From positions 1 to 17,196 of the forward strand of contig JBBCAX010000083.1 in NCBI GenBank assembly GCA_051382335.1: DNA of 17,196 nt. Direction: 5' to 3'. The DNA comes from Deltaproteobacteria bacterium TL4. GTDB taxonomy: Bacteria; SAR324; NAC60-12. How positions within the stretch are numbered: the first letter of the stretch is position 1; each line of letters begins with the position of its first letter. Made by a program: the position numbers and the translations under genes. Of the stretch, positions 2,230 through 17,196 are shown one piece after another. The notes beneath the pieces were generated by a model that saw only the letters and a program-made list of their open reading frames with translations, had not been told where the DNA came from and searched no databases.

Positions 2230-5200
2230 TCACTTGTGGGTTAGATTGACACTGCCATCCCAATCCTCAGGTAACTTCGCGAATTTCAGGACACGACACT
2301 GGTTGAGGTGATACAGAGCTAACCTGTCTTCAGGATAGAGGTCCAAGGCTTTTTTGAAAAACTTCATACACTGCTCCCAATCTCGGTTGATTCTACAAAT
2401 CAGACCTTTTCCAATGTAGCGACTGGATTCTGCTTTGAGGTCTTGTATTTCCTTCAGTTCATGATTAAAAATTTCATAGATCCCTATGGGCTCTTTTTTT
2501 CCATAAACACGAACCATATCGACTTCACGATATTTGAGGGATGAGAGGTTTTGTAACAAGTTCAACGTTTCAAAACTGACCAGAATATCGGTCCCATAGG
2601 TTTTGGTGAGTCCTTCCAAACGAGAAGCCACGTTGACCGTATCCCCCAAGACCGTTGTATCCATGCGGTTTTGAGATCCAACAGTTCCAAAAATCACAGG
2701 TCCGCTGTGAATGCCAATCCCCATCTTGATGGGGGGATATCCACTTTTTGCTCGATAGGTATTGTATTCTTTCAAAACACCATGCATTTCAATCGCCGCG
2801 CAAATTGCGTTTTCAGCTTCCACGTTGTCTGTTGCTTGAGGGATGTCAAATAAAGCCATGATGGCATCCCCAATATATTTATCAATATAACCTCTGTAAG
2901 CATGAATAGGCTCACTTATTTTTTGCGTATAAGCATTGAGAAAACGCAGCAATTCCTGAGGGGTCATTGTTTCCGCCAAAGAAGTAAAAGAGCGGATGTC
3001 TGAAAACAAAATTGTAACATTATCCGCATCCGCGTCTCCAAGTTTGAGATTGACCAACCCCTCATGAGCAATTCTGCTTAAAAACTGTTTAGGCACAAAT
3101 TTTTCGAAAATAGCGGTCATTTCAGTAATTTTTTTGCTTTCCGCTAATTCCACTTGTGTTGTTTTCAACTCGTTATAAAGGTGCGCATTGTTGATTGCGG
3201 TCGCGATCGGATTGACATAGCGTTCGACTCTTTTCAGTTGTGAGTCGCTTAAGACAAAAGGGGTTCGGCTATCGGCAAAGCTAATCACCCCGATTAATTG
3301 TTTTTGAACTTCCAGAGGACAAAACAAATACGACTTGGACTGGGATATGTTGTGGATTTTCTGATCTTCAGGCCACAGGTTTTCCAGAATCTCAGCTGTT
3401 ATTTCAGGAAGATACACCACTTTTTTTGAAAGAGCGGCCTTCACCATAAAACTCACATCCTCATGAAACGGCATTAAGATGTTTTTTAATTGTTCTACCT
3501 GTTTGGTGCTAAAACCGCTGCCATAACATCGACTCAACACAAGATTTTGCTTGTCCGCATCAAACAGCAAAATTCCTACTTGATCGAATAAAAAAACGTC
3601 TTGCAGAGAAGCCACGATGGACAGCATGGTTTCATCTAAATCTAACGAAGCGTTAACCGTTTTTACAACTTCATTGATGTGCGTGATTTCCCGTTCTTTG
3701 GCCTGTGTCTCCTCATATAAGGAGGCATTTGCAAAATGTTGAGAAAGATCCAGGGTGATATTATCCAACAGCAGTTGATCATGCCTGGTATAAGGTGCCT
3801 GGAGATCATACTGTGAAATGGTTACCAAGCCCAGGGTTTTTTCATTGGAGACCAAGGGACTGATCAACTGCTGAACATATTGTCTTCCTAAATGAAGTTT
3901 CAAACTCTCTTCATTCTGGAATGGCTTTAACGTATCCAAATCAAAAATCATGGAATGTTTCGAGGCAAAAACCTCATAAGAATATAAGGTTTGAGGGGAC
4001 ACTTCCAATTCGAATTCTTTGACGTACTTGGGATTCAAGCCAAAACTTGAATGAAGCATCAGCGTGTTTTTTTCTTCATTGTAAAGGAGAACGGAACCTG
4101 AACCTTTGCTTCGAATCAACGGGACAACCTCGGTAATAAAGGTCTTGGAGGCGGCTTCCAAATCAAGAGTACTGTGGACTTTCTTTGCGATTTGATTAAT
4201 TTGAAGTAATTGGTTTTGAGCTGTTTGCAACTCGTGCGTACGGTGCTCTACTTTTTTCTCAAGATTTTTTGAGAGATCTTCCACCATGACAAAAGCTTTT
4301 GAAAAACGCAACGAAAGTAAAAAAGACTGGGAAAAAATAAAAACGAACAAGCCTAAGGAGAAAAAATTACCTGTAGCAATGATTAAATTCACATACAGCA
4401 AATCATTGACGAAGGTAATGGAAAAAAACAACATTCCCCCTAATATTAATAGAGCGCCTTCTCTTTTTCGTACAGACGCTAATACCAGCCCGTAGAGGAT
4501 ATAAAGTACAAACGATAAAGCCACAACTTGATAGGGAATCGCGGTATGCGTGTATATTGACGATTTGGTAAATAACACAAAAAGAGAAAAAAAGACACCC
4601 AGGCACTGAGCCATAAATAGAATTTTCTCAGAAATTTCGTTTTCATAAAGGCTTCTGACATACATTAAAAAAAACGGAGGCCCGAAGTAAAAACTGATAT
4701 ATTCCATTTCCAAGGCGAGTTCCCAACTGAAATCAGGAAATAGTAAAAATATGGTTTTTTCACCGGTGCAGAGGATTCTTACGGAAATGAGCAAACAAAC
4801 CGTGCCAAAATAAAGTGGAGATTGGTCTGTTTTGCGAAGACTGTACAAACCCAAATGATACAGGGCCATAATGAGGATGGAACCCAGTAAAAAAACTTCA
4901 AGAAAGATCCAGCGATCTCTTTTTTTATGAATCTGAGGTTCAAGGCCAAGAACAATAGGATACCAAACCCCTCCCTTCCTGTAATAGAAATTCGAGACTT
5001 GGAGTACCAACTCCATGGTTGTTGAGGAGTGCCTGATACTTGTTGCGTAAGGCAGGAATTGAGGGATCATTTCAGACGGTGTTTTACCAACCGTGCCATT
5101 GCGTCCCGCAACCTCATTGTCTATCCAAAGCAGGAAAGCCGTAGCTTGCTCCGGCAAGTTCAACGCATATTGATTCTTTTGCTCAGGAAGTTGAACTTTG

Positions 5201-5550
5201 AGTTTAAAGGTAGCGTATCCCTCCCCAGAAAGCGTTTTCCCTGCGACTTGATATCCATTCCAGACACTAGGGAGCGTGATGAGACCTGTTTTCTGTGGGG
5301 AGTTTTGATAATTAAAATCATTCGGATCCAGTAATTGTTCCCAATAAAATTCCCATTCCCCACTCAAATCAACGGGCCCTTCTTGCTCAAAGTCCCACGC
5401 TCTGAGATCCAATACGCCATTGACGCCTTTGGGTGTCAGTTTTACGGGTTTTTGCTGTCCACATGAACCGATAATAAGCCCCCCCAGCAGGAGGAATAAT
5501 AATAAAATCCGAGTGCTTGATGCCATAACGAGGACTCTAACTCTACGCAT
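2230..5550 (-). CDS. Class III adenylate cyclase: lipoprotein-like signal, extracellular beta-rich domain, 7TMR-DISM membrane region, two GAF domains, cyclase domain, TPR-like C-terminal tail
   Basis: Cyclase motifs TILFSDIRSFT, IDKYIGDAIMA and RMDTTVLGDTVNVASRLEG (both metal Asp, ATP-specifying Lys/Asp, Asn/Arg). N-terminal GVLDLRAWDF...LSGEWEFYWEQLL precedes seven hydrophobic segments. GAF-type ends PLVSNEKTLGLV...ANASLYEE and PLEVQKQLIGVI...INNAHLYNE. The true start may be ATG 5526. Confidence 0.93.
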   Translation of the reverse strand: MRRVRVLVMASSTRILLLFLLLGGLIIGSCGQQKPVKLTPKGVNGVLDLRAWDFEQEGPVDLSGEWEFYWEQLLDPNDFNYQNSPQKTGLITLPSVWNGYQVAGKTLSGEGYATFKLKVQLPEQKNQYALNLPEQATAFLLWIDNEVAGRNGTVGKTPSEMIPQFLPYATSIRHSSTTMELVLQVSNFYYRKGGVWYPIVLGLEPQIHKKRDRWIFLEVFLLGSILIMALYHLGLYSLRKTDQSPLYFGTVCLLISVRILCTGEKTIFLLFPDFSWELALEMEYISFYFGPPFFLMYVRSLYENEISEKILFMAQCLGVFFSLFVLFTKSSIYTHTAIPYQVVALSFVLYILYGLVLASVRKREGALLILGGMLFFSITFVNDLLYVNLIIATGNFFSLGLFVFIFSQSFLLSLRFSKAFVMVEDLSKNLEKKVEHRTHELQTAQNQLLQINQIAKKVHSTLDLEAASKTFITEVVPLIRSKGSGSVLLYNEEKNTLMLHSSFGLNPKYVKEFELEVSPQTLYSYEVFASKHSMIFDLDTLKPFQNEESLKLHLGRQYVQQLISPLVSNEKTLGLVTISQYDLQAPYTRHDQLLLDNITLDLSQHFANASLYEETQAKEREITHINEVVKTVNASLDLDETMLSIVASLQDVFLFDQVGILLFDADKQNLVLSRCYGSGFSTKQVEQLKNILMPFHEDVSFMVKAALSKKVVYLPEITAEILENLWPEDQKIHNISQSKSYLFCPLEVQKQLIGVISFADSRTPFVLSDSQLKRVERYVNPIATAINNAHLYNELKTTQVELAESKKITEMTAIFEKFVPKQFLSRIAHEGLVNLKLGDADADNVTILFSDIRSFTSLAETMTPQELLRFLNAYTQKISEPIHAYRGYIDKYIGDAIMALFDIPQATDNVEAENAICAAIEMHGVLKEYNTYRAKSGYPPIKMGIGIHSGPVIFGTVGSQNRMDTTVLGDTVNVASRLEGLTKTYGTDILVSFETLNLLQNLSSLKYREVDMVRVYGKKEPIGIYEIFNHELKEIQDLKAESSRYIGKGLICRINRDWEQCMKFFKKALDLYPEDRLALYHLNQCRVLKFAKLPEDWDGSVNLTHK

Positions 5551-6821: not shown

Positions 6822-8516
6822 ATGATAACGAAGATCATTGTCGTCCTGTCTATTGTTTTTACGACAGGTGCCATTTTTTATTTAAGGAAAAAGAAAGAAA
6901 TTGCTTCTCAAATCAGTTGGAAGTTATGGTTATCCACTTTTTATATCAGCCCTGTCTTTGGAACCTTATCCAGTGCGGCACTGGGAGAAACCATCTTGAT
7001 TCGCTGGGTTAATGGGGATTTTTTTCACCATGAAACGCATTCCCTGTGGGAGGCCTGGTGGATCACGGGACCGACGCTTTTTTGTATCTTGCATTGGGTA
7101 GTTCATTTGGGTTTATTGAGAAAATGGTGGTTTTTTCCTGGGGTCAGCCCCAAAACATTTCATGTGATTCCTGTTAGAATTGCTCAAACCACAGGCTTCG
7201 TGCTCGGTATTGCCTTTGGCATAGGCGTTCTGAGACTCATTCAACAAGGGTTATGGACTGAATTCATTCAATTTGCCGCGCCAGCACATATGCTCACTTT
7301 GACCTATTTCGCGATTTTATTGGGATATGTCAATGTGGAAAAATATATTCGCGTCCGAACTGAAATCAACTATGGTTCCTTGACGAGCCGCTTGACCTTA
7401 AATACCGTGTTCCCGCTGATCTTTTCCATCGCTTATATGATAGATGCCGCCTACCTGATCTATATCACAGAAAACCCAACTTATATTGTTGTGTTACGCC
7501 TCATTCTTGCGTTTCTAATGCTTAGCAGTGTGTTTACCTTTTCTCTCTATGAAACTTTGAAAATGGTGATCATTCCCACAAAACAATTGTCTAATGCGTT
7601 AGAGCGTATTTCTTCAGGCGATGGTGATTTAACCCGACGTTTGTATGTTGACACACGGGATGACCTGGGGCTTTTGTGTGTATTTTTCAACCGTTTTATT
7701 GCTCAAGTGCATGAAATTGTAAAAGTAATTGCGACCACCAGTGAAAAAGTCAGCGATTCGGCATCCAATTTGGTCGTAGCGTCAGAAACCACGTTGCGTT
7801 CTACCATGGAAATTTCTCATACGTTGGATATGGAACACAAGAGCATTGATTCTGTCAATGAACGGGTTCAACAAATGGATGTGGCGAGTGCGGGAATTGC
7901 GAGCAATGCAAATACGACAACGCAACACTCCAGGGAAATGGAAAAACTTGTAGATTGTGTTGTTGACAGCATGAGTCAGATGGTTGAGATTATGAGTCGT
8001 ATCAACGAAAGCACTTCCAACATTGGTGGAATTTTAGGTGAAATTCGCGGCATTGCCAAACAAACCAACTTACTTTCCCTCAATGCGGCCATTGAAGCCG
8101 CAAAAGCCGCCGAGCATGGAAGAGGTTTCGCTGTAGTGGCTCAACATGTAAGGGAGTTGGCGGAACGATCTACAAAAGCCACGTTGAATATCCAGGAACT
8201 GATCATGGAAAGCGCAAACCGTGTGCGGGAGGGAAATTTGGCAGTCGGAGACATTCAACGCATGCTGCATGAAGTCAGCGAACTGGTTCACGTGTCTACA
8301 GAAAGTGTCAATGAAATCAATGAGTCCGCAAAAGAACAGAGCGATTTCGTCCATGAGGTTTTTGATGAAATCACCTTACTCCAAGATCTCTCAAATACCA
8401 ACACTCAATCCACAAGGAACATAAAGGACACCGTAAATAACCAAAATAGGGCGGTACAATCCTTGGAAGATGAGGCTCACGCTCTGCATTCCTCCGTATC
8501 GAGGTTCAAAACGTAA
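6822..8516 (+). CDS. Methyl-accepting chemotaxis protein with a polytopic (~7 TM) N-terminal sensor, HAMP and MCP signalling domain
   Basis: Signalling tip IAKQTNLLSLNAAIEAAKAAEHGRGFAVVA; HAMP SSGDGDLTRRL...DDLGLLCVFFNRFI; about seven hydrophobic segments in the first ~245 aa; SD GGAG at 6811-6814. Confidence 0.94.
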   Translation: MITKIIVVLSIVFTTGAIFYLRKKKEIASQISWKLWLSTFYISPVFGTLSSAALGETILIRWVNGDFFHHETHSLWEAWWITGPTLFCILHWVVHLGLLRKWWFFPGVSPKTFHVIPVRIAQTTGFVLGIAFGIGVLRLIQQGLWTEFIQFAAPAHMLTLTYFAILLGYVNVEKYIRVRTEINYGSLTSRLTLNTVFPLIFSIAYMIDAAYLIYITENPTYIVVLRLILAFLMLSSVFTFSLYETLKMVIIPTKQLSNALERISSGDGDLTRRLYVDTRDDLGLLCVFFNRFIAQVHEIVKVIATTSEKVSDSASNLVVASETTLRSTMEISHTLDMEHKSIDSVNERVQQMDVASAGIASNANTTTQHSREMEKLVDCVVDSMSQMVEIMSRINESTSNIGGILGEIRGIAKQTNLLSLNAAIEAAKAAEHGRGFAVVAQHVRELAERSTKATLNIQELIMESANRVREGNLAVGDIQRMLHEVSELVHVSTESVNEINESAKEQSDFVHEVFDEITLLQDLSNTNTQSTRNIKDTVNNQNRAVQSLEDEAHALHSSVSRFKT

Positions 8517-8925: not shown

Positions 8926-11900
8926 CTATGGATGTGGAGTCGTTTTACTGGGTTGGGAATAAAGGTACCCTTGTGAATAATGGATCCCAATTTCTTCGAC
9001 AATATTCTGAATTTCCTGACTTTCTACGAACTCCGCTACAACCTCTGCGCCGATACGAGTCGCCAGGTCATAGATATTTTCCACAATAATTCGACTTTTG
9101 GAGTCATTGGGGAGGTTTTTAATAAATTTTGCGTCAATTTTAATATAGTCCGGTTCAAAATTCAGCAACCGCCCAATGTTTGACAGTTCCGCGCCAAAGT
9201 CATCAATCGCGATTTTGCATCCCAGAGTTTTCAGTCGGTCCAACATGATTGTGATTTGATTATAACTGTTCGAGCTGATGCCTTCCAATATTTCAAAGGT
9301 TACACGTTTGGGATCGATATGATTTCCTTCCAATTGATATTGAATAAAATCAAAAGTCCCTTCATCAACCAGATCTTTTTCTGTCAAGTTAATCGAAAAC
9401 TCAAAGGAGGTCTGACTCATGTGATCAAAACTTTTCATGATCATTAATTTTGTTGCTCGAGCAATACTTCCTGAGCGCTCCAAGGCCGCAAGAAAAAAGA
9501 AGGGCGCCAGAACTTTTTCTGGAGTTTGTAAACGCATCAAGCATTCGTATTTGTTAATTTTTCCATAAGAAGGACCTTTCCGATTATCTCTGATGCCCTG
9601 AAACACCGGGAAAAAAGCATTTTCCTCAAAGCCTTCCTGGACGCTCTGATATTGCTGAAGAGTTTTTAAATGCTCATCAGCAACCTGAAGTTCCTGAGTA
9701 TAAATCTCAATTTTACCCGATTTCTGAGATTGCCCTAGCGCGACGTGAGCATTTTTGTACATATCGCCACTTTGACGATCCGCAATCCCAATGGAAAGAT
9801 TTAAGATGAGCCGTAGATGACGATAATTGATTTTAGCGTCATTAATCGCTGTTTTGATAACTCCGCTGAGTTCCGTTCCTTTTTGCAGGTTTTCAGGGAG
9901 CAGAACACAAAATTCAGGGCCGGCGAGTCGGTAGAGCATCGCGCCCTCTGAAAGCAGAGGTTTGAGGGTATCTGCCATTTGACGTAAGGCCTCATCCCCG
10001 GCTTCAAAATTTAATCCTGAATTAATTTCACTAAAATTTATAATGCGAAGATAGAGTGACGTGAGATATTTCGTATTTTCCAAATCCTCAATAAATTTTC
10101 TTTGATTCCAGCAGCGCGTCAACGGATCATGAAATAACTCCTCAATATGATTTTCCAACTTCCGGTTTTGAGACTCAATCCCTTGCAAGAGTTCCGCGTT
10201 ATTGATGTAAGGTCCCAAAACAAGACCTAATTGACGAAAAAATTGCTTTTCAAATTGTGAGTAAAGGGTTCCGTCAATTTTATCAAAAATTAACAAAAGA
10301 CACGTAAGGCGTTCTTCAAAAAAAACAGGGAGTAACAAGGTCGCGTCACGTAATTGGTGTTGAGCAGGAATGGTAAAAGGTTGATTGAGGATCCACTCTT
10401 CCATTTCTTCCTGAGTACGTAACAAGGGATAGGTTTCAAAAATGGTAAGCAAGGGGTCTTTGAGATCAATCGTAATTAAATTACGATCATCCTCATGAGA
10501 TTTTTTTGAGAAAAAGAGAGTTTGTTCTTTCGAACTCCAAGTCTCCCACCCCCAGAATTGAGTCAATGAATCAGAACCGACAAGCATTACAAAACGTTGA
10601 CTCATGAAGGTGTTTAAAATCGGTTCCGTTAATGTTTGATAAATTTCCAAAAGGTGATTCGTTTTGGATAACCGATCAATCAGTTGTTTATAGGTCCGAG
10701 TTATTTCTTCGGCATGTTGACCAAAGAATAAACCTAGTAAAAACTGCCAAAATTGCTGGACTCTGGTAAAAGAAAGCCAGATCACAATAACTTCCAGAAC
10801 CTTGATGAAGTTTTGATGATCTGTCTTTATTAAAGCGCCAGGGCTCAGAGAGAGCAACCATAAGGTGGCAATGATTCCGATCCACAAAAAGAGCTGATGG
10901 ATGCTGTTGATCGCTTCTTTGAAATTATACCGAAACATTCCATACGCAAACAAAAGCATGGGGATGAAGGTGAAATTGCCCAAAGGGTAAATTTCCAGAC
11001 CATACATTGGAGGAATATTACTTAAATTGAAGAAAGCAGAACAGAGTAAGCCCAGAAACAAATAACGGAGACGATGTTGTTGAAAGGGGTTATCGGTTTT
11101 TTGAGAACTTCGATACAAAATCCAGATACCAAAGCCCACACCTGCCAAAATCACACCGCCAAACACGTCAAAAAGAAAGGCTTTCTTCGCGAAGAAACCC
11201 CAGTAATAATGGTACATTCCTTTTATGTAATAAGACGTCTGTGTCAAGGGCGACAGGATGGCGCCAAAACCATAGGCACCGTAAACCACCCACCAATGTT
11301 TGTTTTGTTTTGTGATGGTGAAGACTAGATGCAGATACAAGGCCAGCAAAAACACTATGGAAAGATGGCTCATCCTACTGAGCCGGAGTCCCACTTCTTC
11401 CAAGGTGATGATTCCATTGAGCAGGATGTCACAATTTAAAAAAGCGTACACCATACAAATCAAACTGAATAAGAGGACATCTTTTTGATTTTTACCAACA
11501 CGCAGGGAAATAAAAGAAAGTAAAGCACAACAGAGCAATGACAGTAAAGGCGGAATGCCGTAGGGGATAAGGCGACTCATGATATACGGAACTGTAAAGC
11601 CTTCCAACGCCCATACCGAGAGAGGTATCAGAACGAGAAATCCCAAAAGGATCACGGCCTGAATCAAATTGCTCACCATTCTTCTTCTGGCATAGACATT
11701 GATTTTAACCAGATTATGCCGAAACATTCCGAAGGTCATGAGCAGGTTGGGAACAAAAATAAAAGTGCCCAAAGGGTATAGCTCAAAACCCAACACGGCG
11801 GGAAGATTGCCAAAATTCAAAAAACTGCTCAGGATGACTCCAATAAAGATGTAGCTCAATTTCTTTTGATATTGAACATTAGCGGCATTTTCCCAGGATT

Positions 11901-13254
11901 GATGAATGAGGTAACTGTACCACAGCAGGCTCATAAAAGCGATGCCGGCAAAGAGGAGGATTCCCCAATCCGCCTGGGCAAAAACGCCAAAATAGTAGGA
12001 TTTGACGGTGTAAAAATAATGATCCGTTTGCGTTATTCCCATTAAAATGAAACTGATGAAATAACAACTGTAAACAAATATTCGTTGCTGACGGCGAATC
12101 ACCAAATAGATGAAATGACTGTAAATTCCTATGTTGAGCATCAGAAAAAAATGATCCACTCTCCCAATATATAAGGCCATGTCCTTTTTCAAAACCAACG
12201 CTAACAAGGTAACATCCAAATTAAACCAACCCCATAAAACGCTCAAAATTCCAAATAATAGGATTTCCAGCTTCAGTTTTTTTCTTGAGAAACTGAACGT
12301 CGCAATGACCAGGCAGGTAAGGAGTGATAGCAAGGAAGGAATGGCCAAGGGAAAAAGGTGTTGTAGGATATTCGAATAAAATAAATCTCCTTGTGTTTTG
12401 AACCACAAGATGACGCAGATAACCGGGGGAGTCCACGTGAGGGCGATGAGTATTGTGGAGGCATGTCCTTCTTCCGTTAACCAACTTTTGATCGTAGTAA
12501 CTATTTTATTTTCTAATACTCCGTAAGCCAGGAAAACCATGGGCAGAAACATAAAATGGGCAAGTGGGAAAATATTAATTTTCCATAGGGGGAGAACCTT
12601 GACAAGGGAGAGGCATAAATAGAGGAAGGCACCACCGACAATGAATTTATATTGGCGTAATTGGGTGGGGTCCTGGGTGATTCTAAGCTCTTTTAACAGA
12701 ATCCAGACTCCATAGAAAAGACTTAACAAGGAGACCAAACTGAATAAATAATATCCCGAACCTGGCTCCAAGAGCCTCCCATAATAAACAGGTTGATAGT
12801 TCAAAATGAAATAGTCGGTTTGAGTAAAAGGCATCAAGGCCAGAGCACTGAGGTACAACAGACGAACGATCCAGACTCTCAGGGGATAACGAAAAGAAGG
12901 AGTCGGACTGAGGCTCTCGGAAGAAAGCAAAGATGGCTTGTCTTTCGCGTATTCTTGAGAAAACTCGGTGAGGTGTTGAATGAAATGAAAAGAAATGGGA
13001 AGGATGAAGACGTAAAAACCATGAATAACTCTGGAGACAATCAACGCCATATGGTTCGAATACCAAAGTATTTCCAGGAGGTTATTCAAGGACAACAGGG
13101 TTTGTAAAAGACAGTAAAGAGTCAGAAGTTGATTTTCTTTTTTATTTCGCCCCGAATTGATGCTCACCGATGCCAAGAAAAAACACACTAACATCGAGAC
13201 GATGGAAGGAAGGGCAAATGGAAATAAAAAATCGAATCGGAAAAGTGATTCCAT
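8926..13254 (-). CDS. Giant membrane c-di-GMP phosphodiesterase: three tandem 7TM (HisKA_7TM-like) modules, GAF-like domain, degenerate GGDEF, EAL
   Basis: Three internal repeats at aa ~10-252, 300-516 and 562-778. GAF-type end LLLPVFFEERLTCLLL...INNAELL. GGDEF fold HDPLT...AGDEAL...YRLAGPEF. EAL motifs ECLMR, SINL, FEILE, IDDFG, IKID, VAEFVE, SQGY. Confidence 0.92.
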   Translation of the reverse strand: MESLFRFDFLFPFALPSIVSMLVCFFLASVSINSGRNKKENQLLTLYCLLQTLLSLNNLLEILWYSNHMALIVSRVIHGFYVFILPISFHFIQHLTEFSQEYAKDKPSLLSSESLSPTPSFRYPLRVWIVRLLYLSALALMPFTQTDYFILNYQPVYYGRLLEPGSGYYLFSLVSLLSLFYGVWILLKELRITQDPTQLRQYKFIVGGAFLYLCLSLVKVLPLWKINIFPLAHFMFLPMVFLAYGVLENKIVTTIKSWLTEEGHASTILIALTWTPPVICVILWFKTQGDLFYSNILQHLFPLAIPSLLSLLTCLVIATFSFSRKKLKLEILLFGILSVLWGWFNLDVTLLALVLKKDMALYIGRVDHFFLMLNIGIYSHFIYLVIRRQQRIFVYSCYFISFILMGITQTDHYFYTVKSYYFGVFAQADWGILLFAGIAFMSLLWYSYLIHQSWENAANVQYQKKLSYIFIGVILSSFLNFGNLPAVLGFELYPLGTFIFVPNLLMTFGMFRHNLVKINVYARRRMVSNLIQAVILLGFLVLIPLSVWALEGFTVPYIMSRLIPYGIPPLLSLLCCALLSFISLRVGKNQKDVLLFSLICMVYAFLNCDILLNGIITLEEVGLRLSRMSHLSIVFLLALYLHLVFTITKQNKHWWVVYGAYGFGAILSPLTQTSYYIKGMYHYYWGFFAKKAFLFDVFGGVILAGVGFGIWILYRSSQKTDNPFQQHRLRYLFLGLLCSAFFNLSNIPPMYGLEIYPLGNFTFIPMLLFAYGMFRYNFKEAINSIHQLFLWIGIIATLWLLSLSPGALIKTDHQNFIKVLEVIVIWLSFTRVQQFWQFLLGLFFGQHAEEITRTYKQLIDRLSKTNHLLEIYQTLTEPILNTFMSQRFVMLVGSDSLTQFWGWETWSSKEQTLFFSKKSHEDDRNLITIDLKDPLLTIFETYPLLRTQEEMEEWILNQPFTIPAQHQLRDATLLLPVFFEERLTCLLLIFDKIDGTLYSQFEKQFFRQLGLVLGPYINNAELLQGIESQNRKLENHIEELFHDPLTRCWNQRKFIEDLENTKYLTSLYLRIINFSEINSGLNFEAGDEALRQMADTLKPLLSEGAMLYRLAGPEFCVLLPENLQKGTELSGVIKTAINDAKINYRHLRLILNLSIGIADRQSGDMYKNAHVALGQSQKSGKIEIYTQELQVADEHLKTLQQYQSVQEGFEENAFFPVFQGIRDNRKGPSYGKINKYECLMRLQTPEKVLAPFFFLAALERSGSIARATKLMIMKSFDHMSQTSFEFSINLTEKDLVDEGTFDFIQYQLEGNHIDPKRVTFEILEGISSNSYNQITIMLDRLKTLGCKIAIDDFGAELSNIGRLLNFEPDYIKIDAKFIKNLPNDSKSRIIVENIYDLATRIGAEVVAEFVESQEIQNIVEEIGIHYSQGYLYSQPSKTTPHP
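10921..13227 (-). repeat. Three diverged protein-level tandem repeats of a ~217-aa 7TM module
   Basis: R1 13227-12499, R2 12357-11707, R3 11571-10921. Shared motifs: LFPFALPS/LFPLAIPS/LIPYGIPP, SRVIH/GRVDH/SRMSH, FTQTDY/ITQTDH/LTQTSY, YYG/YFG/YWG, IFPLAHFMFLP/LYPLGTFIFVP/IYPLGNFTFIP. Confidence 0.9.
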
Positions 13255-13360: not shown

Positions 13361-13729
13361 CTACTTTTTTTTCCTTCGATCTACATAGCCTTCTTCCATG
13401 TCACTGTCTTTTTTGGGAAACTGAAACAAAGAAGGTTCCTCATGGTCCGTCAAGATCGTCAAATATGAAATGGTTTGTCTGGTATCCACAAAATCTTTAA
13501 TATCTTGATGAAGTTGCAGATCCGTATCCTCTTTGAGGGTAATCGTCAGGGAAATATTTTTAGGAGATTTGTCCTTATCTCTTAAATGATACAGCAGCAT
13601 TTTATAAAGATTATGCAGAGAATCCATTGAATTAATCGAAATTTCCCACTTGAATAAATTTTGTTTCTTTTTTTTTTCTTCCATAATGCTCTTTTGATTA
13701 TTTTGAGTTTGTGTCAAGACACTTGCCAC
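13361..13729 (-). CDS. Hypothetical soluble protein (~107-122 aa)
   Basis: Non-overlapping ORF co-oriented with, and 106 nt upstream of, the EAL gene. GTG start preceded by AAGGAAAG; alternative ATG at 13684. No recognised domain. Confidence 0.6.
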   Translation of the reverse strand: MASVLTQTQNNQKSIMEEKKKKQNLFKWEISINSMDSLHNLYKMLLYHLRDKDKSPKNISLTITLKEDTDLQLHQDIKDFVDTRQTISYLTILTDHEEPSLFQFPKKDSDMEEGYVDRRKKK

Positions 13730-14021: not shown

Positions 14022-16343
<2,322 letters not shown>

Positions 16344-16507: not shown

Positions 16508-17196
16508 CTACAATAGTTGTTGTTTTAGTTGTTCAAGCATCAACTCTAATTCCTCCATTGTTTTCGCCATCAACTCTTCTTTTGAGTTCTGAGTTTGCTT
16601 AAGCACTAATTGAAAGGCTCTAACCTGTCCAATCAAATCACCTTTCTCCAGTCCTTTTTGCAGTCCTTTTTGCAGTCCTTCTTCTCTGCCTTCTTTTCTG
16701 CCTTCAAGCTTTCCCATACCATAAGACGATTCCACCATACTTGCCTGATAATGCAAATCATCAACATAAGACTCATAAGTGGCTCTTTCCTCATCAGAAA
16801 GTTTCATAATATCCAATTTGTCTTTGGCTTCTTTGAGTCCCTTTGCTTGAAATTCCGTTTTGATTTCCTCGTGTTTCAAAAAATAAATCCATTCATCCAG
16901 GGGATCTTTCGCGTGATCATCAAACTGATTTACTTTGATCAAATAATATTCAGGATAAAGCTCATAAATCTTTTGTTTATGGTAAAGTTCCTTCTGACTC
17001 TCACTTAATTGAAGCTCATCGCTTTTATGAATTCCCTTAAACGTGGTGGTTCCCCTATAGACATAATCGGCTCCCTGTCCCAGATCAAAATAAAGGATAT
17101 TGATCGAAATCACCTTGATGATGGTGGAATAAGGTTCGGATTCATGAAGATGTTCGGTGATGATCCGGGAGGTTCCATATAAGATTCTTTGGAGAT
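16508..17196 (-). CDS. Rpn-family / PD-(D/E)XK nuclease-like protein (often annotated putative transposase), 5'-partial
   Basis: The frame stays open to the window edge (LQRILYGTSRIITEHLHESEPYSTIIKVISINILYFDLG). Family features: PEYYLI, LDEWIYFLK, A...L..MKLSDEERATYE and C-terminal G-x-x-E/K repeats. GTG 17113 is internal. Confidence 0.88.
   Translation of the reverse strand, partial: LQRILYGTSRIITEHLHESEPYSTIIKVISINILYFDLGQGADYVYRGTTTFKGIHKSDELQLSESQKELYHKQKIYELYPEYYLIKVNQFDDHAKDPLDEWIYFLKHEEIKTEFQAKGLKEAKDKLDIMKLSDEERATYESYVDDLHYQASMVESSYGMGKLEGRKEGREEGLQKGLQKGLEKGDLIGQVRAFQLVLKQTQNSKEELMAKTMEELELMLEQLKQQLL
16641..16716 (-). repeat. 12-nt in-frame tandem repeat encoding GKLE-GRKE-GREE-GLQK-GLQK-GLEK
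   Basis: Perfect period-12 stretch at 16649-16680 (CAGTCCTTTTTG x2.7), flanked by degenerate units. Confidence 0.85.

Follow-up and report, generated by a model that had tools for sequence, protein, structure and literature searches.

A triple tandem seven-transmembrane head of the HisKA_7TM family on a GGDEF–EAL protein of a SAR324 bacterium

Layout and topology of the triple head

We analysed a window of 17,196 nucleotides from Deltaproteobacteria bacterium TL4, of the SAR324 lineage (positions 1–17,196 of contig JBBCAX010000083.1, assembly GCA_051382335.1). This whole stretch is called the window below. Its reverse strand carries, at 8926–13254, the gene P0001, whose 1442-amino acid (aa) product consists of a triple seven-transmembrane (7TM) head, two tail helices, a GAF-like domain, a degenerate GGDEF domain and an EAL domain; all the parts listed here lie on that strand. 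The triple head fills the first 778 codons of the open reading frame (ORF). Module 1 (aa 8–250, 243 aa; 12505–13233) contains a 25-aa Ser/Pro insertion, of low model confidence, between transmembrane helices TM3 and TM4. A short helix (250–260) then precedes helix L1 (aa 264–286; 12397–12465), the eighth helix of the first unit. Module 2 (aa 298–514; 11713–12363) is followed by helix L2 (aa 520–549; 11608–11697), and module 3 (aa 560–777; 10924–11577) by the two tail helices (aa 787–844; 10723–10896), which run towards the cytoplasm. The GAF-like domain and a coiled helix (aa 846–1029; 10168–10719) have no Pfam match. In the whole protein Pfam recognizes only GGDEF (aa 1041–1180) and EAL (aa 1204–1435).

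A sequence-only reading of the window had proposed that the head consists of three homologous modules sharing polar motifs. Both proposals hold. Pairwise Smith–Waterman scores were 188, 268 and 364, with identities of 25.7, 28.8 and 31.2%; the maxima reached with shuffled sequences were 74–79 (1000 shuffles for each pair), and 80–133 when residues were shuffled locally in blocks of 10. The repeat period is ∼264 aa, made up of a module of ∼218 aa and an eighth helix. The R-x-x-H motif and the following His of TM3 occur in all three modules (R75/H78/H90, R365/H368/H380 and R627/H630/H642), as do the TQT, aromatic-G and PL-x-x-F-x-F-x-P motifs.

The predicted 7+1+7+1+7+2 topology was also recovered. 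Hydrophobicity averaged over 38 homologues gave 25 segments in aa 1–850, besides one false peak on a strand of the GAF-like domain; the P0001 sequence alone gave 21 segments in the same region at a Kyte–Doolittle cut-off of 1.3. In the AlphaFold model described below, a single unbroken helix (763–808, assigned by DSSP) merges TM7 of module 3 with the first tail helix, which leaves it uncertain how the last two helices are arranged; the parity is even regardless. Lys and Arg residues in loops 1–2, 3–4 and 5–6, compared with loops 2–3, 4–5 and 6–7, numbered 11:2, 9:3 and 9:4 in modules 1, 2 and 3 respectively. Under the same topology model, basic residues on the inside outnumbered those on the outside in 32 of 32 near-complete homologues. 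Because the bias favours the same loops in every module, each module should start outside and end inside; judged by hydrophobicity and these counts, all three face the same way.

The triple arrangement is not an artefact of assembly. Exact DNA words common to two modules reach no more than 11–13 nt, and since DNA similarity between the modules has nearly gone, a collapsed repeat can be excluded. A chimera is likewise rejected, because triple-module genes recur in other genomes.

Family, distribution and origin of the modules

The suggested kinship with PF16927 (HisKA_7TM) was borne out directly for module 1: it reached 39.2 bits, where the cut-off is 28.6, and 38.5 bits when the genome was searched. 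Modules 2 and 3 fell below the cut-off and gave nothing significant when cut out, yet they are homologous to module 1. The best ESM Atlas matches to module 3 with its tail were PF16927 clusters, at 0.94, 0.92 and 0.92. We conclude from these comparisons that the modules are divergent relatives of HisKA_7TM. A PF16927 match at E ≤ 0.01 was obtained for just 3 of 28 modules, and because most modules lie below the Pfam cut-off, P0001 as a whole receives no 7TM annotation. A genome scan with module 3 alone yielded 39 pattern matches, none of which was confirmed.

In the genome that contains the window (G000), a module profile matched 13 ORFs: seven intact triples (on contigs C83, C228, C287, C144, C1, which has two, and C87), one broken triple (C339), two doubles (C37 and C183) and three fragments. 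Among 88 genomes of the phylum, many of them incomplete, three matched at E ≤ 1e-10: G000, G009 and G008. G009, from a related genus, has 12 triples, in one of which the middle module has decayed, and a truncated single; G008 has one double. An exhaustive profile search retrieved 3940 representatives at E ≤ 0.001, with at least three matched stretches in 42 of the 150 matches listed. Source labels were 'SAR324 cluster bacterium' for a G009 protein and Desulfobacterales, Desulfobacteraceae and CSSED10-310 for other triples. The module period is 260–269 aa in most multi-module relatives. One match per protein was found in 85, two in 27 and three in 43 of 155 relatives, a set biased towards multi-copy proteins since scores add up.

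The outputs vary. The seven intact triples of G000 carry GGDEF–EAL (one), kinase–receiver (one), kinase–receiver–PP2C (two), adenylate/guanylate cyclase (one) and GGDEF (two) domains, and the 12 of G009 carry cyclase (seven), GGDEF (three), PP2C (one) and kinase ATPase (one) domains. By domain assignment, the triple head is a sensor shared across a family found in uncultured bacteria, with histidine kinases, adenylate/guanylate cyclases, diguanylate cyclases and PP2C phosphatases among its outputs.

Several family members are unusual in build. The broken triple of G000 (L006; G000:C339:12633–17899, reverse strand) lies in two ORFs of 736 and 1065 aa, whose reading frames part within the tail helices through either a real break or a sequencing error. 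One of the doubles (L007; G000:C183, 5535–7172, forward strand) is a 544-aa protein with modules 1 and 3 that ends after the first tail helix, has no output domain and is directly followed by ruvC–ruvA. The G008 double (L042; G008:C52, 549–7613, forward strand) has 2355 aa, in which a Ser/Thr kinase and a WD40 propeller precede the double head and a GAF domain and a cyclase follow it. The 3040-aa P0023 has WD40 and solute-binding domains ahead of a triple head.

A FastTree phylogeny of 261 modules (non-redundant, each covering 170 or more profile positions and scoring 60 bits or more) placed 48 of 50 second modules of triples in one clade (support 0.80) and 49 of 51 third modules in a neighbouring, weakly supported group, with first modules apart. 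The modules thus sort by position, which points to a single old triplication before the expansion of the paralogues. In a triple of G009 (L030; G009:C9, 2591–8188, reverse strand) the second module clusters with first modules, which suggests that module 2 has there been replaced by a copy of module 1. Independent duplications occurred in P0139/P0140 and in P0130/P0145/P0149, also with one helix between modules.

The sequence-only reading had seen the extra helix between modules as a device that restores their orientation. One helix does lie between modules, as it claimed, but this helix is probably no invention. A hydrophobic helix directly follows TM7 in 66 of 68 single-copy relatives, and the linker of P0139 retains the post-TM7 motif of its own family, so the linker is likely an ancestral TM8 inside an even, eight-helix duplication unit. 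With an even unit, every copy would come out right side out. Newly recruited linker helices are less likely. We envisage that the eight-helix unit (7TM plus ancestral TM8) would have been triplicated once, long ago, after which gene expansion and output swapping would have followed.

Predicted fold, unequal modules and probable enzymatic output

We modelled aa 1–1030 of P0001 with AlphaFold from 64 sequences, and the head model reached a pLDDT (predicted local distance difference test score) of 90.3 and a predicted template modelling (pTM) score of 0.80. Every module was modelled as seven helices with a beta-hairpin between TM4 and TM5, and the membrane part is followed by an alpha/beta domain that matched GAF domains weakly in Foldseek (best E 0.01). 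The 1030-residue model as a whole matched nothing at E ≤ 0.001. Module 3 was taken as a single domain for the fold search; modelled alone, it reached pLDDT 96.9. Its best match was a designed fold like a GPCR (G protein-coupled receptor; Z 16.0), followed by the adhesion GPCR ADGRL3 (Z 15.9, root-mean-square deviation 3.9, 205 aligned), and other GPCRs and microbial rhodopsins scored Z 13–15. Foldseek matched it to GABA-B with E 7.8e-4 and a TM score of 0.59. The structure prediction called for by the sequence-only reading thus gives seven-helix modules, with a predicted GPCR/rhodopsin type of fold for module 3, whose hairpin (677–691) is extracellular. By sequence, the module profile had no match to solved structures at E ≤ 10, and a wider profile matched only kinase and GAF parts. 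A light sensor can be rejected, as alignments show no retinal-binding Lys in TM7 of any module.

Each module is predicted to be a seven-helix bundle with an outward-facing polar pocket under the hairpin lid, and the three modules are predicted to pack in a defined arrangement. The pocket would be made up of Asp from TM2, Arg and His from TM3, Asn from TM6 and Tyr/Asn from TM7. Module 3 has the canonical set (D609, R627, H630, Y676, N746, Y756 and N760) and module 2 a near-canonical one (D347, R365, H368, N483 and Y493); the pocket of module 1 is partly altered, with N57, K219 and H233 at the positions of D609, N746 and N760. The top covariation pairs among pocket residues, H630–Y676, H630–N746 and D609–S629, are consistent with a pocket beneath the hairpin. 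When the three units were submitted as separate chains, complex prediction gave a score of 0.12 and a mark of 0.32, which speak neither for nor against the packing.

The sequence-only reading had considered a three-input receptor; the comparisons do not bear out that the modules are equivalent inputs. Among the 38 SAR324-like homologues they are conserved alike (mean identity 33.6, 33.4 and 33.7% for modules 1, 2 and 3, with 25% for the linkers and 19% for the tail). The TM3 Arg is kept in 77, 78 and 100% and the TM3 His in 45, 78 and 70% of modules 1, 2 and 3 respectively (n = 31, 32 and 33), a retention which indicates that modules 1 and 2 are still constrained in this group. Across 23 Desulfobacterota-like homologues, identity is 51% for module 3 and about 20% for modules 1 and 2, and the Arg/His pair is gone from module 2. 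The 40 Desulfobacterota-like genome loci comprise 17 single-ORF triples, one split locus (L074, with an in-frame stop where module 2 ends) and 22 genes that start at helix L2. We call this last form L2+R3, with R1–R3 standing for modules 1–3; in all 14 of its proteins tested, the L2 profile recognized the first 50 residues (E 4e-15 to 1e-6), whereas the L1 and tail-helix profiles gave E ≥ 0.01. No ORF for R1–R2 was found in the flanking DNA examined at the 22 loci, two of which have < 100 bases upstream. Helix L2 thus persists as the N-terminal 'TM0' of natural single-module descendants. Reduced doubles take the form R1+R3 (C37, C183 and G008) or R2+R3 (P0177). Leaving aside fragments that end early, every reduced form traced has retained module 3, while modules 1 and 2 have decayed or been lost. 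Because natural reductions keep module 3, it is likely to transduce the signal, with modules 1 and 2 modulating it.

Desulfobacterales diguanylate cyclases with TM0 and module 3 (L046–L063, L073 and L085) often lie directly upstream of a gene of ∼515 aa that at its start resembles a GAF-type activator, and often downstream of either a small lipoprotein or a hydrolase-like gene of ∼200 aa, in each case as read from the first 70 residues.

The proposed control of cyclic di-GMP (c-di-GMP) breakdown stands for P0001 itself, whose output is likely a phosphodiesterase; it does not extend to the triple head elsewhere, which is found on many other outputs. In the EAL domain (8950–9645) the catalytic and metal-binding residues are present (E1237, N1289, E1321, D1351/D1352, K1372, E1408 and Q1428). 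The usual EAL loop 6 consensus is DFG(T/A)GYSS; P0001 has DFGAELSN and four paralogues in its genome have DFG(A/S)EQSN, while PA0861 deviates too. The GGDEF domain (9715–10134) lacks the marks of an active diguanylate cyclase: it has AGPEF (1111–1115) in place of GG(D/E)EF and Arg at the position of the first metal-binding Asp. PA0861 (PDB 5xgb) is the closest solved structure by sequence for the GGDEF–EAL part (E 1.5e-32). Among 166 proteins compared, P0001 is the only carrier of EAL. Its GGDEF–EAL tail is 51–58% identical to four proteins of the same genome with differing N-termini and 30–38% identical to membrane paralogues, which suggests a later output swap in which the tail was likely taken from a resident phosphodiesterase family.

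Other genes of the window are a methyl-accepting chemotaxis protein (6822–8516, forward strand), with an apparently multi-helical N-terminal region of ∼250 aa that Pfam does not recognize, a monomeric isocitrate dehydrogenase gene (14118–16343, forward strand) and a PD-(D/E)XK nuclease family protein (16508–17194, reverse strand) broken off by the contig end. A 1106-aa protein at 2230–5550 (reverse strand) has 7TMR-DISM_7TM, two GAF, adenylate/guanylate cyclase and TPR domains, and its GAF–cyclase tail shares its domain order with the tails of several triple-head paralogues. A small ORF (13361–13729, reverse strand; about 107–122 aa) lies 107 bases upstream of the receptor gene and has no Pfam or NCBIfam match. 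Its one orthologue among 44 other family genomes (63% identical, in G009) sits in a different neighbourhood, with no triple gene in the 3.3 kb around it and no module match on its contig; as this orthologue lies away from any module, we claim no partnership with the receptor. A scan for promoters and terminators gave chance levels (10 against 12.0; 5 against 6.0).

Relation to known systems and a model for P0001

HisKA_7TM sensors are the nearest relatives. With them P0001 shares the sequence family, seven TM helices with the N-terminus outside (judged by hydrophobicity, positive-inside bias and AlphaFold helices), a TM8 thereafter and fused cytoplasmic signalling enzymes. Their usual arrangement is a single copy, whereas P0001 has three in tandem. 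The available parts of PMC5847659 and PMC6944256 name HisKA_7TM only as a list entry, an archaeal sensor domain, and none of the papers found gives a ligand or mechanism for it. The closest tandem precedent found is that of the bestrhodopsins (RR-B), which, according to the portion of PMC10962995 at hand, also join 7TM modules covalently in tandem through a single connecting helix and fuse them to an effector. Unlike P0001, they have two modules, are algal, bind retinal and gate a pentameric channel effector by light; the modules of P0001, unlike those of bestrhodopsins and microbial rhodopsins, have no TM7 Lys. The GPCR fold has been described in prokaryotic histidine kinases and diguanylate cyclases (PMC13581589); section 5 of that article does not mention tandem copies, and the portions covered of its supplementary files contain no match to HisKA, PF16927 or SAR324. 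The accessible text of PMC8638967 and PMC8846402 adds nothing on triple heads. In a literature covered mostly as titles and abstract openings, with subscription journals and InterPro architectures outside it, we found no published account of tandem HisKA_7TM or triple 7TM bacterial sensors.

P0001 shares a predicted 7TM fold with GPCRs, adhesion and class C receptors being the best structural matches, but would signal to a fused enzyme rather than to a G protein. Class C GPCRs couple two 7TMs non-covalently, and heterotrimeric G proteins are not known in bacteria. GGDEF–EAL hybrids with an inactive GGDEF, such as PA0861, share the domain order and EAL catalytic residues; P0001 differs from them in its AGPEF motif and in having a 25-helix triple head as input. 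P0001 belongs to the HisKA_7TM family of sensors, with a triple arrangement of its own, and is classed as neither GPCR nor rhodopsin, although it would work much like an enzyme-linked receptor of GPCR fold.

We think it somewhat probable, on balance, that P0001 is a membrane receptor–phosphodiesterase in which module 3 signals to the enzyme and modules 1 and 2 are accessory ligand-binding units. A small polar, probably anionic ligand from outside would occupy the module 3 pocket and shift TM7 and the two tail helices. In a dimer, these would in turn drive the GAF-like domain with its coiled helix, switching EAL activity. Binding of the same ligand, or of related ones, to modules 1 and 2 would bias module 3 by way of contacts in the membrane and so alter its sensitivity or ligand range. 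Kinase, cyclase and GGDEF outputs need dimerization, and it is by analogy with these needs that we infer a dimer.

Several observations weigh against this reading. The conservation of modules 1 and 2 could be due to folding and not to binding. Z-scores of 13–14 are common among helical bundles, where values up to about 13 can be generic, and microbial rhodopsins, at 13.9, lie 2 below the top match. The pocket is deduced from sidedness, conservation and covariation, the packing from pTM alone. As EAL loop 6 departs from the consensus, the phosphodiesterase may need activation or may be inactive. As regards the linkers, their profile comparisons with TM8 gave probabilities of 8.6, 2.5 and 5.2 (controls up to 2.8) and mean scores of 3.8, 3.3 and 4.6 bits (controls 0.9–3.6), and L1 has no profile similarity to L2; with such weak profile evidence within the triple-head family, we rate ancestry from TM8 no higher than likely.

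Position-specific signatures are conserved across genomes, and this, with the equal conservation of the three modules in the SAR324-like group, the three polar positions at which the module 1 pocket of P0001 differs from that of module 3, and the pTM of 0.80 for the whole head with the GAF-like domain, would fit a three-input logic device. In such a device each module would have its own ligand and drive the output by lateral trans-activation in a compact covalent trimer, along the lines that the sequence-only reading had proposed. We consider it possible, if rather unlikely, given that many relatives have lost modules 1 and 2 or carry them in decayed form, with even a replacement in G009 C9, that the tail helices are joined to module 3 only, and that core pocket residues are mostly common to the modules, which fits one ligand class. 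At the other extreme, modules 1 and 2 might be non-sensing bulk or scaffold, serving localization, clustering or partner binding, so that P0001 would work as a single HisKA_7TM sensor; 17 of the 40 Desulfobacterota-like loci do keep three modules even though modules 1 and 2 have decayed, and single-module descendants occur. This seems improbable for P0001, which belongs to the SAR324-like group, where modules 1 and 2 keep their outward polar residues and hairpin at 45–92%.

A metal or lipid-phase cofactor, held by the TM2 Cys, inner TM3 His and TM4 Tyr and used for membrane or redox sensing, would account for a TM2 Cys present in 93% of 69 single-copy relatives and 74–84% of triple modules, and for the rank of H642–Y661 as the second covariation pair. 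In module 2 of P0001, however, Ser stands in place of this Cys, just 32% of single-copy relatives have the inner His, no other helix offers a second His partner, and triads of this type can have a structural role; we give this explanation very little credence.

Because standard annotation misses the triple head, proteins of this kind are named for their outputs only. It is conceivable, though we would not expect it, that the head is a covalent heterotrimeric GPCR-fold receptor whose three diverged pockets trans-activate each other via the membrane and compute an input drawn from several ligands. The dimer would then set six GPCR-fold modules over one enzyme, and the head would be a general front end for cyclic AMP (cAMP), c-di-GMP, phosphorelay and phosphatase signalling in some SAR324 and Desulfobacterota lineages. 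The family offers a natural series, from three live pockets through one live and two decayed to R1+R3, R2+R3 and TM0+R3, set on interchangeable enzymes with easy read-outs (cAMP and c-di-GMP), and this should make it testable which ligands are bound and whether GPCR-fold modules signal sideways without a G protein.

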